Shown piece by piece: positions 1-58,154 of a DNA stretch of 64,000 nucleotides; within the stretch, counting starts at the first letter, position 1, and every line of letters begins with the position of its first letter. A program made the translations under genes and the position numbers. Source of the stretch: Eledone cirrhosa (Eukaryota). The notes beneath the pieces were generated by a model. The model worked only from the letters and a program-made list of their open reading frames with translations. It made no database searches and had not been told where the DNA came from. Location of the stretch: the NCBI GenBank assembly GCA_964016885.1, contig OZ024743.1:36952001-37016000 (forward strand), in the 5' to 3' direction.

Positions 1-1090
1 ATGTATTAATGGGGTGTTTTTCCCAACCATCATGCGATTGGTCAAAAATCCATATAACTGACAAGTTGCTTTTCTTAATTAACAAATTCAATTTGGTGAA
101 ATGATTTTCAGAAATAAAGGCGATGATTAATTTTGTTGTATTGTCATTGGCAAGGAGCTTAAGGGCATATAGGAAAGGGTCATCTGAATTAGTTTCGTTG
201 TTTGTGCTGAGGTCATCATAGTTAACCCCGGGAATATCTTTTAACCAGATGACATGTAAAATACATAATTTGGTACTCCTGGTCATATCAGTGAATAACT
301 GAATGAGTCTACGATTTTCTAGTGTGTCAGAGGCTACTACAAAAACATGATTCCAACGATACGCACTTACGAGACCAATTATCGCGGAAAAGCGAGCATT
401 TGCAGAGAGTGTTAACGACAAAGAGGTTTCGGGCAAATCGAAATCTCGTTCGGCTCTACGAGTACCGCCATTTTTCTCTATTGCCAACACAGGTTTTTTA
501 AAATCTGCAATCGAATCCAATAAACTGTCGAGAACATCCGAAGATCCGACTGCCATATAAGCTGGAGTTAATTTAGGGCTTGCTCCCCAACTTGAGTAAT
601 AATCCTCAGTTTTCTGGATTTTTTCAGACTTTTCCTGTTTATTATTTTGTCGAAGGGAATATGCACAGGATTCAAAATTTCCTAAAATAGTTAAGGCCTT
701 TTGTTTAGAAGAACACGTGTCTAGGATTAAAAGACCAAGATTTACATCTTTCAAAAGTTCATTGTGTCGTTGCTTTGCTGTTTTGACAGCATAAATCATA
801 GCCTCTATCAATTGGTCAATGTCGCTGTCGATGGTGACTTCTCCACATTCAAATGTTGTTTGTCCTGCCTTCCGTACAGGCATTATTGCCGTTACTAGAA
901 TGTCACCAGGTACGTAAATGAAGTCATTATTAATATCTATTGTTTTACCCGGTGAACTATCACATTGGTAACACTGAGGGCACCATCCATTGCATTCAGA
1001 AACTGGAGCCTTGACATCTTCTAAAGCGTTGTAACCTCGCACAGACTTCTTGAACATAGAAATACTTTTGTTTATAGTGTATTGGCCAAC
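1..1090 (-). CDS. Single-exon module: Cys-rich linker plus VFT3, open to the window edge (absent from the ORF track)
   Basis: TATCTAG|GTTGGCCAA acceptor. Manual translation has no stop down to position 1: VGQY...SECNGWCPQCYQC...VPGDILVTAIMPVR...CG...QLIEAMIYAV...VNLGLLILDTCS...WNHVFVVASD...LCI...VIWIFDQSHDGW. Confidence 0.9.
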
Positions 1091-4000
1091 CTAGATAAAT
1101 AAATACACACACATTGGGATAAAATACATAAGAAAAGACATCGTATACAATTCCATTATAATATTGGTAAACATTAATATCTAAACAAAAAGTAACAACA
1201 CATAAATAAATACCGATTCATATATTGAACAGATACACACTGATGTCAGAATATCTAGCCATCGTGTTTTCATATGTGTACACAATTGTTGATTAAATCA
1301 GGATGTTCTTATACATACATACTTTTAAAAATATATACTTAACTGTCCTTAAAATCTATAAATATTATTATTTCATCTCATACAGTCACATATTCGATTG
1401 TTATTTTAAAACTTTCTAAGTTCGTGAATATATCCTGATAATCTATATTACAATAACTGTACAGCTATATACAGTATATAGCATGCCAACACAAGAGCAA
1501 GAATGAGGGGTTCATTCTACTGACATGGCTATAAAATCGAGGCTTGTTTGCATAATTGCAAACGAATCGAATGTTATTACTCAGATTACATTTATTGTAT
1601 TCAGCCATGTAGAGTGAAATTTTCTTTTATATATATATATATATATATATATATATATATATATATATATATATATATATATATATATATATATATATAT
1701 ATATATATATATATATATACGAGTTATCGTTTTCGGTTTCTCTAGTTCAGAGTTAGAATAGCCTATAACGCGGATTGTTTCAGCATACAGCTGTATTAAT
1801 CTTTATATATATATATATATATATATATATATATATATATATATATAACATAGCTTTGTTATAATTTGCTGAAGAAACCAAATAATACGTATTCTGGCCG
1901 TAAAACAATCGTCTATGCAACATATAGTTAGTTAGCATGATACGATGTTGCTGAAATATAACTCAATGAAAATTGACTAAGTTATAGGAAAAAGGTCCAA
2001 CTATCTCAAGGAGGTGGGGGGCACAAATCAAATGAAAATGTATTTGACGAATTTATAATCTAATGAAATACACAGTATATTATGAGCTGGCCTATGCAAC
2101 GCTAGTCGATAATATTAGGCTAGACGTTACGTGTAGACCCCATTTCAAACAGTTTATGCTAAATGCATATGATTTATATATAGGTTATGGGTATATACAT
2201 GTATATATACTGTATATGATGTAGTTAAAAGCGACGGAAAGGTATATAGAAACTAGAACGATTTATATAAAGGTATTTCTATACTAAAGGGTCCTACTTT
2301 TGCCTCTTCGGGGGAAGTAGGCTCCTTCAAAATCATAAGGCCATGGCAACTGATCCACAGTCAACCAACCTTTCGTTCTGGCCCGATTCTGGCTCCGTTT
2401 AACCTCGCAAGCTGGAATGGCTCTTCCAGCGCGTCTCCATCACCATCCTCCGGGGAAACGCGTTCTCTATCCACTGGGGCCCACCTTTGCTTATAATGAG
2501 AGATGAGAAGAACTGGAGAGACGGAGCCGGTGACAGTTGGAGATTGTTTTCATTGTGTTCGGACCTGATGTATATATATATATTTATTTATCGCACCACA
2601 TATACACATATATATACATATATATATATATATATATATATATATATATATATATATATATATATATATATATATATGTGTATATGTGGTGCGATAAATA
2701 AATAAATATATATATATATATATATATATATGTATATATATGTGTATATGTGGTGCGATAAATAAATATATATATATATATATATATATATATATATATA
2801 TATATATATATACATTGAATATCTTAGCACTTGTTTCATACACACACACTCACAGGCACACTTTACGTATGTTATACGACATTTTTATCAACAGTATAGT
2901 ACTGTTGTATATTATGTGTTTTCTATGATATGAACCAGAAATGTGACTATAAATCAATAAATACATTAAAAGGGCAATAATCGTATGTGTTTATGGGCAT
3001 CAACCTATGATCGGTGCAAAATTTGACATAACATATCTACTAAAACTTTAAAATAGTAGGCAAACTAATATCAATAGTAATAAAGAAAGAGAAACTGTGA
3101 AGTAGACTAAAGACCAATAGTATTTAATTTCATCCTTCTACACTCAAGTCACTTTGAGGTTAACTTTTTTCATACCTATGGAGTCTATTTTGCTCTGAAA
3201 ACAATTCATGTCAGGCATGATCCAAGGTAGATCCAATCAATTGCACCTACTTTCTACAAACCTTTCACGGCTATAAAAAAAATGTATTTAAAATATATGG
3301 AAGGAATGTTTATTCAATACAAAACCCAGAAGTTATGAGCAATAACTACCATCTCTGTGACTAAGAATACAAAGAGGGCGATAATACAACTGCTTCTAAT
3401 AAACAGGTGCTATTTGTTGTCAACATTATAGTAGCAAATTATAAATGACTATAAGACTTAACTCTTAATGGAATCTTAGGGTCGCTTTCGTGATATACTA
3501 AACCTTGCAAGTCGCATCTTTTTCCAGGTCTGAACATAACCGATTGAGAGAGGGGGGGGAGTGAGTGAGTGTGTAAGAGAGAGAGGGTGAGTAAGAGAAA
3601 GAGCGGGAGTGAATTAATGTCTGACTGATTGAGAAAGCGAGTGAGAGACTGAGACAGAGAGAGAGAGAGCTAGTGAGAGACTGAGAGAGAGAAAAAGAAA
3701 GAAAGAAAGAGAGAGAGAGAGAGAGAGAGAGAGAGAGAGAGAGAGAGAGAGAGAGAGAGAATTACCAGCTACAGTGTTTTAGACTACTACTTTATGAATT
3801 ACAAAGTGATAAAAGGCCAAGTTGCGCTCGACGGATTTTGAACACAGAGCACAGGGAGCCGGAATGGATACCGCAAGGCATTCTATCCAACGCTCGCCTT
3901 AGAAGAAAACTATATGCACATGTGTAAATTTGTAAATGAAACTATTATTGTTTTCTGAAAATTTTTTGCACATTTTACAATATACAATTAAAATTCATTT

Positions 4001-4147
4001 TAATAATCTTTACTGGAAGACATAAATTTTCCATAAGAAGTATAGATGTCAGTCAGGATTTGATTCAATACTAGGGAAATTTCAAATTAATTAATTAGTA
4101 CAAATTTTACTTATAATTCACATATTACAAATATGAACTATTCGTAT

Positions 4148-4260
4148 TCAAATCCCGCCGGGGTTAACTTTGCCCTTCATCCTTACGGGGTCGATAAAAT
4201 AAAGTACCAGTAATACACTGAGATAATTGCTGGCCTTGTGCTAATAGTAGAAACAATTAT
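4148..4260 (+). mobile_element. SINE A, 5'-truncated
   Basis: B box through tail match the family consensus. It explains the spurious C-terminus of ORF 4183..5625. Confidence 0.85.
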
Positions 4261-4311
4261 GAAACCTCTAATTTCAGTCATAATTTCACTAAAATGTAAT
4301 TCTATGCTTAC

Positions 4312-56580: not shown

Positions 56581-56719
56581 ATATATATAGAAAATAATTG
56601 TTTCTACTTTTGGCACAAGGCCAGCAATAACCCAGTGTCTTACTGGTACTTTATTTTATCGACCCCGTAAGGATGAAAGGCAAAGTTAACCTCGGCGGGA
56701 TTTGAACTCAGAATATAGA

Positions 56720-57446
56720 AAATAATGACACCTAGTCACACACACACACACACATATATATATATATATATATATATATATATATATATATATATATATA
56801 TATGTGTGTGTGTGTGTGTGTATAGAGAGAGATATGTGTGTGTGTGTGTGTGTGTGTGTGTGACTAGGTGTCATTTTTTTCTTCAAATGTTGTTCACCGA
56901 AGGAAAATCTCGATTTAGGGTACAAAAAGAAATTTTTTTTTTTGAAGGTGGTGCTTCAGCATGGCCACAGTCTAATGTCTGAAGTGAGTAAAAGAGTAAT
57001 TGTTTATACACAATTCTAGTGTATTTATGTTCTTGTTCATGAGTTTAAGATCCAGAATACGAGCGTAACATCATTTTTTTATGTATAAGGAAAAGCAAAT
57101 AATGACACCTAGTCACACACACACACACACACATATATATATATATATATATATATATATGTGTGTGTGTGTGTGTGTACAGAGAGAGAGATGTGTGTGT
57201 GTGTGTGTGTGACTAGGTGTCATTTTTTTCTTCAAATGTTGTTCACCGAAGGAAAATCTCGATTTAGGGTACAAAAAGAAATTTTTTTTTTGAAGGTGGT
57301 GCTTCAGCATGGCCACAGTCTAATGTCTGAAGTCAGTAAAAGAGTAATTGTTTATACACAATTCTGCTGTATTTATGTTCTTGTTCATGAGTTTAAGATC
57401 CAGAATACGAGCGAAACATCATTTTTTTATGTATAAGGAAAAGCAA
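56720..57446. repeat. Direct tandem duplication (~350-377 bp units), each unit containing a fold-back
   Basis: Units 56720-57096 and 57097-57446 are nearly identical apart from microsatellite lengths. Confidence 0.92.
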
Positions 57447-57880
57447 TATTTCAAAGTTTATTTCGTTTTTATCTTAATAAATTAAATCATATACTAAAAA
57501 TAAATGTGTTAATAAAATACATAATTAGTTTGGGCTTTTCGGCATCACTTTATCCGTGTTCTAACAGTGATTGAAGAGCAGTACAGTTTAAGTTGCGAAT
57601 CCGAGAAAAAAGAAATTTAAAATAGCACGAAAATATCGAATTGTTATAATCATAAGAAACCTAAAACAAGAATTGAATTTGAGGAATTAGGATTGAGATA
57701 AAGGTTATTGTGCGACTGCTCAGACCTAATTCCTGGGATAAATCTAGTTGGGTTGTTGGGTCAAGACACCGACTTCATGTAAAGTAACCGTTAGTAAATA
57801 GGTATGGCAAGGTACATAGCCTTTCCAAACCATATCAGTTATATATTAAAATAAAAGATATTTCAGAAGATTTTACTTAC

Positions 57881-58154
57881 CATTGTTCACCAGTGAAGAA
57901 GCCATGTTGACGTATTCGTGAGTCCATAGTGCTGAATAAGCAACTAATAATGAGCGACTGTCCGGCTGCGAGCAATTTCCATTGTTATTCAACTTCTGGT
58001 TAATATCCAAGAGAACAAGTGTTGTTGAACCATTGTACGACGGTTGATCAAATACGGGCTCAAGGGAAGTCTCGTTGAGCGCTGAAGCTGAGAATTTAAG
58101 CAGCATACCACGAAGGCTACCACTAACAAGCATCTTCCCTGAGACTTCTTCATG
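57881..58154 (-). CDS. Most 5' visible coding exon of a multi-VFT class C GPCR-like gene (N-terminus and start of VFT1)
   Basis: Acceptor TTTTTTTTATATTCTAG at 58155 and donor G|GTAAGT at 57880 (phase 1). Reads ...SALNETSLEPVFDQPSYNGSTTLVLLDINQKLNNNGNCSQPDSRSLLVAYSALWTHEYVNMASSLVNNG and joins in phase to LRVFDCC, matching the mGluR N-terminal pattern (C...AMxxAxxxIN...LG..I.DTC). The 5' boundary and start codon are uncertain. Confidence 0.7.

Follow-up and report, generated by a model that had tools for sequence, protein, structure and literature searches.

A class C receptor gene of the octopus Eledone cirrhosa with three tandem Venus-flytrap modules

The window analysed here, a stretch of 64,000 nucleotides of Eledone cirrhosa (assembly GCA_964016885.1, contig OZ024743.1, forward-strand positions 36,952,001 to 37,016,000), contains exons that join into consecutive Venus-flytrap (VFT) modules, and it raises the question of what kind of protein such an array forms. 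An earlier note, made from the sequence letters, had read six exons as either a class C GPCR or a secreted array with at least three VFTs. We sought to determine the full extent of the gene, the order of its domains and the manner in which its product may signal.

Gene model and splicing evidence

The gene comprises seven coding exons on the minus strand and encodes a class C GPCR of 1777 aa in a single frame (Table 1). All six exons read earlier were confirmed in this frame, with consistent intron phases (1,1,0,0,0,0) and GT-AG boundaries at all introns. The frame had been described as open at the window edge, and extension past position 1 carried exon 6 onward and reached exon 7. The count of VFTs, given before as a minimum, is exactly three.

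Table 1. Coding exons of the gene in window coordinates (negative positions lie beyond position 1)
Feature	Position	Strand	Content
Coding exon 1	57881..58153	(-)	ATG, signal peptide and start of VFT1, aa 1-91
Coding exon 2	10591..10686	(-)	VFT1, aa 92-123; after 47-kb intron
Coding exon 3	8436..8596	(-)	VFT1, aa 124-177
Coding exon 4	7343..8086	(-)	Remainder of VFT1, aa 178-425; contains lobe-2 Cys220
Coding exon 5	4312..5655	(-)	Phase 0-0; four-Cys linker 1 and VFT2, aa 426-873
Coding exon 6	1..1090, on past window edge to -463	(-)	Phase 0-0; four-Cys linker 2 and VFT3, aa 874-1391
Coding exon 7	-1228 to -2388 (G000:C4:36949612-36950772), all outside window	(-)	Three-Cys stalk, 7TM, conserved C-tail, stop

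In the assembly, one base of exon 1 is missing near 58096, and owing to this deletion the true start, ATG 58153, lies in a different frame from the exon 1 ORF of the earlier note. A search of sequencing runs returned four runs from one study, none listed as RNA; the missing base was present in three of them and the fourth had no cover at the site. The frameshift is thus an assembly error, since the run sequence carries the base. Exon 1 is preceded by a 5' UTR exon spliced to the acceptor at 58155-58156, and a 245-nt 5' loose end found no match in genome pattern searches or in about 306 kb upstream, a stretch that includes one N gap.

One run, X1, yielded a contig of 5638 nt that holds exon 1 at record positions 246-524 and exon 5 at 1522-2869, spaced as predicted. 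This contig is intron-free, with no cover of adjoining unique intron sequence, and the exon 1/2 junction was read directly in a loose end. Missing reads across the 7343/5655 and 4312/1090 junctions had been named earlier as a sign of separate genes; for both junctions the support is indirect, from where contigs end and from lengths that add up exactly. An artefact, in which annotation merged adjacent genes or tandem pseudo-exons, or a frameshifted pseudogene is largely refuted and extremely improbable. The frameshift in the assembled exon 1 and the lack of an RNA record for X1 would fit such an origin, but the missing base was recovered from three runs, exons 1-5 are spanned by one intron-free contig with exact spacing and enough length for exons 6-7, a 1935-aa orthologue was found on Logan contigs of up to 6655 nt, and the identical architecture recurs in cephalopods, gastropods and bivalves that were annotated independently.

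Domain order, fold and linker cysteines

The product consists of a signal peptide, three VFTs, short cysteine linkers in place of the nine-cysteine domain, a 7TM at about aa 1466-1716 and a conserved tail. The 7TM, expected earlier outside the window if present at all, was found in exon 7 (PF00003, 7tm_3, above cut-off, E 4e-21), and this refutes the secreted array for the main transcript. Pfam ANF_receptor matched exon 5 (E 6e-10) and exon 6 (E 4e-10) directly, and all four full-length orthologues carried three ANF stretches and 7tm_3; the nine-cysteine domain NCD3G was absent from the same four in Pfam. VFT folds were likewise recovered by HHalign between repeats (V1-V3 98.5%, V2-V3 100%) and by predicted models, with VFT3 (pTM 0.78) matching CaSR and mGluRs in Foldseek at E of about 1e-21, and VFT1+2 of the O. 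vulgaris orthologue forming two alpha/beta units that match mGluRs. As a lead only, VFT1 of P0001 reached 0.93 to ANF_receptor clusters in the ESM Atlas, with 158 of 256 features shared. In VFT2 the lobe-1 dimer helices are predicted to be missing. The VFT3 homodimer prediction scored 0.00 in two runs for which controls were not folded, and it counts neither for nor against a dimer.

The ectodomain contains 23 N-glycan sequons. Aligned with mGluRs, the 7TM retains the TM3 Lys, the TM6 Glu and the TM7 P-K motif, which are class C activation motifs, along with the TM3-ECL2 Cys pair. A TM3-ECL2 disulfide of the class C 7TM is described in PMC8115157. Identity to O. vulgaris was 96% in the 7TM, 78-83% in the VFTs and 100% in the C-tail, and among octopods the intracellular tail hardly varies.

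We then examined the linker cysteines. Linker 1 has four in 13 of 14 molluscan sequences, the lone exception also lacking the VFT2 helix-B Cys, and linker 2 has four in every sequence; the final linker, which is followed by no VFT, has three in all 14. Across 41 linkers of 16 proteins, cysteine number tracks partner cysteines in the flanking VFTs in 38, including separate gains and losses in the scorpion, nematodes and single-VFT arthropod members, and three linkers break this parity. In a family profile alignment, the lobe-2 Cys and the first two linker Cys match those of mGlu2. We therefore predict that disulfides connect each VFT with its successor, a prediction that rests on co-variation among related sequences because the AF2 model of VFT1+2 (pTM 0.49) does not fix the VFT1-VFT2 orientation and gives the linker pLDDT below 50.

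Pocket residues and possible modes of signalling

The pocket was scored at eight columns (R, S, S/A, T, D, Y, D, K), which we take to be the glutamate-pocket positions under mGlu1 labels. VFT1 and VFT2 keep none of the eight and VFT3 keeps three, in alignments of about 20% identity whose columns may be shifted out of register, most of all in VFT2; three of three mGluR controls kept all eight. Among the six molluscs scored, VFT1 and VFT2 retained 0 or 1 of 8, with columns varying between species. The residues conserved in 14 molluscan sequences are mostly structural Cys, Gly, Trp and Pro, with 39 in VFT3 vs 17 and 22 in the other two VFTs. VFT3 could hold a different small-molecule pocket.

These profiles bear on the suggestion that the gene is a multi-ligand chemosensor with a separate small molecule for each VFT. 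The fold is kept in all three repeats, the repeats have been distinct since the molluscan ancestor, VFT3 has its three pocket residues, and the ectodomain diverges fast, as is usual in chemoreceptors. However, the pocket columns of VFT1 and VFT2 are nearly empty and unconserved in all six molluscs, VFT2 is apparently absent from the Mya and Mercenaria models, and no expansion was seen, the subfamily of this gene accounting for only one of the 17 matches to the class C 7TM in the E. cirrhosa genome. Given the pocket loss, the suggestion is weak for this gene and we regard it as decidedly unlikely; it fits better the five-VFT relatives, in which as many as 5-6 of 8 pocket residues survive in some repeats.

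A role in a class C heterodimer as the subunit that signals or aids trafficking without binding ligand, as in GABA-B2 or T1R3, with for example a five-VFT or one-VFT paralogue as partner, seems unlikely. It would accommodate the combination of degenerate pockets with a 7TM and C-tail that are strongly conserved (96% and 100% identical to O. vulgaris), the partial pockets of the five-VFT members and the presence in the same genome of paralogues without a cysteine-rich domain (CRD), located on C22 and C217 and including five-VFT and one-VFT receptors, but it leaves the retention of three VFTs across Mollusca unexplained. GABA-B itself is a class C receptor without a CRD that has a non-binding VFT in one subunit. 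The octopus receptor likewise lacks a CRD, whereas its VFTs are mGluR-like, tandem and joined by cysteine linkers; no GABA-B chain was among the PDB matches listed.

We consider it very unlikely that the product is mainly a membrane-tethered ligand or adhesion protein without G-protein signalling of its own. Its large glycosylated ectodomain and dead pockets recall Drosophila BOSS, which has a class C 7TM and a predicted VFT devoid of the glutamate-binding residues and serves as tethered ligand for the receptor tyrosine kinase Sevenless (10.1101/2024.03.13.584817). The likeness to BOSS is one of features, and BOSS has one VFT vs three. Against a purely tethered role stand the retained class C activation motifs and the near-invariant octopod tail.

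Our tentative preference is that the spliced gene is intact and encodes an orphan class C GPCR whose three tandem VFTs have lost the glutamate pocket and which likely signals through a disulfide-linked VFT chain and not by glutamate binding, a reading we hold at somewhat below even confidence. Each linker is what remains of the beginning of the mGluR CRD and would bond the lobe-2 Cys of the upstream VFT, equivalent to the bond that joins VFT and CRD in mGluRs, while its fourth Cys would bond the end of helix B in the next VFT. The predicted partners are Cys220, Cys651 and Cys1149 for the lobe-2 bonds, and Cys545 and Cys1015 for the second bonds, which linkers 1 and 2 would make. VFT3, the membrane-proximal and most conserved module, likely dimerises and transduces to a 7TM predicted to be G-protein-competent. 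By analogy with the degenerate VFT of BOSS, VFT1 and VFT2 are likely to make up a glycosylated arm for contact with a ligand that is a protein or lies on a surface.

Relatives and comparison with known receptors

Orthologues with the three-VFT architecture were found in cephalopods, gastropods and bivalves, and three VFTs are kept throughout Mollusca. Each repeat position formed its own clade in a quick tree. A quick 7TM tree, midpoint-rooted, placed the gene in a CRD-less class C clade (SH-aLRT 99) outside the mGluR clade. It is part of a wider invertebrate group that carries one to five VFTs, with uncharacterised predictions from amphioxus (P0209, five), Physella and Babylonia (five), Centruroides (four), the crinoid Antedon (three stretches, partial) and the nematodes Trichinella and Steinernema (two); C. 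elegans F35H10.10 may be another two-VFT nematode member. These predictions share the CRD-less clade and the repeat of VFT plus short cysteine linker, and the five-VFT paralogue of this genome also has a phase-0 intron at the matching site between repeats. They belong, however, to separate subfamilies, and the five-VFT members have partial amino-acid pockets and mostly three-Cys linkers. Database names of such proteins are automatic ('uncharacterized', 'mGluR-like') and in the literature searched no animal GPCR with several VFTs was described, which agrees with the earlier view of a multi-VFT class C receptor otherwise represented by uncharacterised invertebrate predictions.

The gene may be a branch of an ancient, undescribed bilaterian class C family with one to five exon-duplicated VFTs, a cysteine-stapled serial allosteric relay to the 7TM and five-VFT members that integrate several amino-acid-like ligands, although we judge this full proposal somewhat unlikely. 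If true, it would describe a serial allosteric relay found in no GPCR known so far. We know of no characterised class C GPCR with more than one VFT per subunit. In the activation models set out in PMC8115157, one VFT dimer twists the CRD and 7TM dimer. A conserved lineage with two, three, four or five VFTs and only a CRD remnant, spread over molluscs, chelicerates, nematodes, a crinoid and amphioxus, offers a natural setting in which to ask how movement of a VFT is passed to the 7TM and whether serial coupling of VFTs is possible. It corrects the 'mGluR-like' annotations and adds an orphan receptor family whose short-architecture nematode member is open to genetic study.

Among characterised proteins, mGlu2/3/7/8, CaSR and T1R gave the best PDB matches in both sequence and fold, and they share the VFT fold and class C 7TM. 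The lobe-2 Cys and first two CRD Cys of mGluRs are retained, whereas mGluR, CaSR, T1R and V2R receptors have one VFT where the octopus gene has three, and a nine-cysteine domain where it has three- or four-Cys linkers; compared with mGluRs, it has also lost the glutamate/amino-acid pocket. As a functional analogy only, Bordetella BvgS and E. coli EvgS likewise stack tandem VFTs above a transmembrane signalling unit, although these are bacterial histidine kinases (PMC4352136, PMC5573083).

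Gene model and transcript evidence

The three-VFT class C GPCR is a real, conserved and transcribed gene, with transcription supported by one sequencing run (X1) that we infer to be RNA. Its exon boundaries were placed by tblastn with orthologues that had been found with exon 5. All introns were GT-AG with phases 1,1,0,0,0,0, and the open frame, given one unknown base near 58096, encodes 1777 aa, which share 85% identity with the O. vulgaris protein along the full length.

Coding exons of the three-VFT gene, in positions of the window (contig C4, 36952001-37016000; negative values lie beyond window position 1)
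Exon	Position	Strand	Remark
1	58153-57881	minus	
2	10686-10591	minus	
3	8596-8436	minus	
4	8086-7343	minus	
5	5655-4312	minus	
6	1090 to -463	minus	crosses window edge
7	-1228 to -2388	minus	wholly past position 1

Exon 5 was present in four runs of one study (X1-X4), none recorded as RNA. On a 5638-nt X1 contig, window 4310-5657 corresponded to record positions 1522-2869 and the adjoining unique intron sequence was uncovered; the X2-X4 contigs read on from exon 5 into intron. Exon 1 was located at record 246-524 on an X1 contig of equal length, depth and strand, and the loose end of that contig holds the first part of exon 2. The distance from the ATG to exon 5 was 1275 nt in both gene model and X1 contig, and the contig remainder of 2771 nt equals exons 6-7 (2715 nt) plus 56; support for the 4/5, 5/6 and 6/7 junctions is contig coverage and length arithmetic rather than junction letters. 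Independently of these runs, a 1935-aa orthologue clustering with a Sepia protein was recovered on Logan contigs of up to 6655 nt.

The contigs of X1, X2 and X3 carry an extra base behind 58096 (the site is uncovered in X4), and we infer that the exon-1 frameshift is an assembly error. It was noted that such a one-base deletion error would lead annotators to overlook the signal peptide. Neither the upstream sequence nor a genome-wide pattern search yielded an exon for 245 nt of 5' transcript sequence (window 58156 and upstream), which may fall within a gap or be more distant. The 47-kb first intron also holds a retroelement-like RVT_1 ORF with a weak zf-RVT match (22118-24847, plus strand), followed by fragments of one similar element.

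Domain architecture and folds

Pfam recovered three ANF_receptor stretches and 7tm_3 in all four full-length orthologues, and NCD3G, the nine-Cys domain of mGluRs, in none of the four. The tandem VFTs claimed in the earlier note were thereby borne out, and the extension past position 1 that it proposed uncovered exon 7. Its alternative of a secreted array is refuted for the main transcript by the presence of the 7TM, which keeps class C motifs and matches mGlu3, mGlu2 and CaSR.

Repeat-to-repeat profile comparisons linked the three VFTs, at 97.8% (VFT1-VFT2), 98.5% (VFT1-VFT3) and 100% (VFT2-VFT3). VFT3, modelled by AF2 together with linker 2 (pTM 0.78), matched CaSR and mGluRs. For O. vulgaris VFT1+VFT2, AF2 gave two alpha/beta units (mean pLDDT 71) whose mutual orientation was not fixed (pTM 0.49), with VFT2 predicted to do without lobe-1 helices B and C; in Foldseek, one VFT-sized part of this model, either of the two, matched mGluRs.

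The earlier note knew such proteins only as uncharacterised predictions, and this holds: they are database entries under automatic names, and in the literature searched no animal GPCR with several VFTs was described, its tandem VFTs being those of bacterial sensors. Passages of PMC12716839, PMC6307864, PMC11589774, PMC11682238, PMC2246102, PMC3971589, PMC1192796, PMC6829134, PMC8115157, 10.1101/2020.04.23.037242 and 10.1101/2024.03.13.584817 do not mention the architecture; the supplements of PMC3971589 and PMC12716839 may show it in lists of domain architectures.

Relatives and origin of the repeats

Named three-VFT orthologues were found in cephalopods (three Octopus species, Argonauta, Sepia), gastropods (Haliotis, Lottia, Biomphalaria, Nucella) and bivalves (scallops, Mytilus, Saccostrea, Sinanodonta). 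Two VFTs each, matching repeats 1 and 3, were present in the models from Mya and Mercenaria, with VFT2 apparently absent; these clams may have lost the phase 0-0 exon that encodes VFT2, a modelling error being possible instead. Partial orthologue models yielded lower VFT counts. Searching 1.84 billion representatives with the 7TM returned 454 matches, and wider relatives were drawn from the best 150 of these and a further search. Among the matches listed were five-VFT proteins (amphioxus, Physella, Babylonia), four-VFT proteins (Centruroides), four ANF stretches lacking a 7TM (Macrostomum), three in a partial protein (Antedon) and two (nematodes and a mite); the 30 proteins identified by name included no vertebrate.

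A quick, midpoint-rooted 7TM tree of 84 rows, built without GABA-B, CaSR, GPRC5 or BOSS references, unnamed proteins below 700 aa, 7TM pieces below 200 aa and most cluster members, set the multi-VFT relatives and the molluscan subfamily apart from mGluRs (support 99). Next to the molluscan subfamily (99) came the two-VFT proteins of nematodes and the one-VFT proteins of arthropods (95). A quick tree built from 66 individual repeats gave one clade each for molluscan repeats 1, 2 and 3 (99, 96, 96); on long branches, repeat 1 grouped with nematode repeat 1 and arthropod single VFTs (96), and repeats 2 and 3 with nematode repeat 2 (96). From this grouping and the single clade per repeat, the triplet is older than the cephalopod/gastropod/bivalve split, and duplication of a phase 0-0 exon is the likely origin of VFT2/VFT3.

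The same genome holds a second multi-VFT class C gene (contig C22, 14396800-14432300, minus strand) with five repeats and a 7TM, which resembles the five-VFT proteins of gastropods and amphioxus; its repeats are separated by phase-0 introns at the same site as in the three-VFT gene. On contig C217 (13919-16914) lie the 7TM exons of another paralogue, probably CRD-less with one VFT and nearest O. bimaculoides LOC106868776. On contig C27 (4967115-4970870), a 909-aa open frame spans the VFT, CRD and 7TM of an mGluR that is possibly a retrocopy; its sister in the 7TM tree is an mGluR on C14 whose gene contains introns.

Ligand pockets, linker cysteines and candidate roles

Pockets were scored as matches at eight mGluR ligand positions, labelled as in mGlu1, in an alignment of about 20% identity that can slip; VFT1, VFT2 and VFT3 scored 0, 0 and 3, and all three mGluR controls 8. 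The five repeats scored 5, 6, 3, 4 and 2 in amphioxus and 5, 2, 4, 5 and 1 in Physella. Identity to O. vulgaris was 78-83% in the VFTs, 96% in the 7TM and 100% in the tail; against gastropods and bivalves, it was 12-25% in the VFTs vs 33-41%.

We tentatively read the protein as an orphan receptor that signals and whose ectodomain is tied by disulfides; VFT3 would drive the 7TM and VFT1-2 would serve as a protein-binding arm. That it is instead a heterodimer subunit appears less likely, and a multi-ligand chemosensor, against which the pocket scores count, somewhat less likely still. A tethered, non-signalling ligand is improbable for a protein whose 7TM keeps its class C motifs, and an artefactual array, given orthologues in three molluscan classes, highly improbable.

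In the proposed orphan receptor, linker disulfides would tie the VFTs together. The lobe-2 Cys, which in mGluRs bonds to the CRD, and the first two linker Cys align with their mGlu2 counterparts in the family profile. Of 14 molluscan sequences, 13 have four Cys in linker 1; the remaining one, from Saccostrea, is also the only one without the Cys after helix B of VFT2. All 14 have four Cys in linker 2 and three in the last linker. Counting linker Cys together with the two partners, the lobe-2 Cys and the Cys after helix B of the following VFT, gives an even total in 38 of the 41 linkers from 16 proteins, which are related rather than independent sequences. Informative here are a scorpion repeat lacking the lobe-2 Cys with a two-Cys linker, two nematodes in which the downstream partner Cys is used in its place, and two single-VFT proteins that have neither partner.
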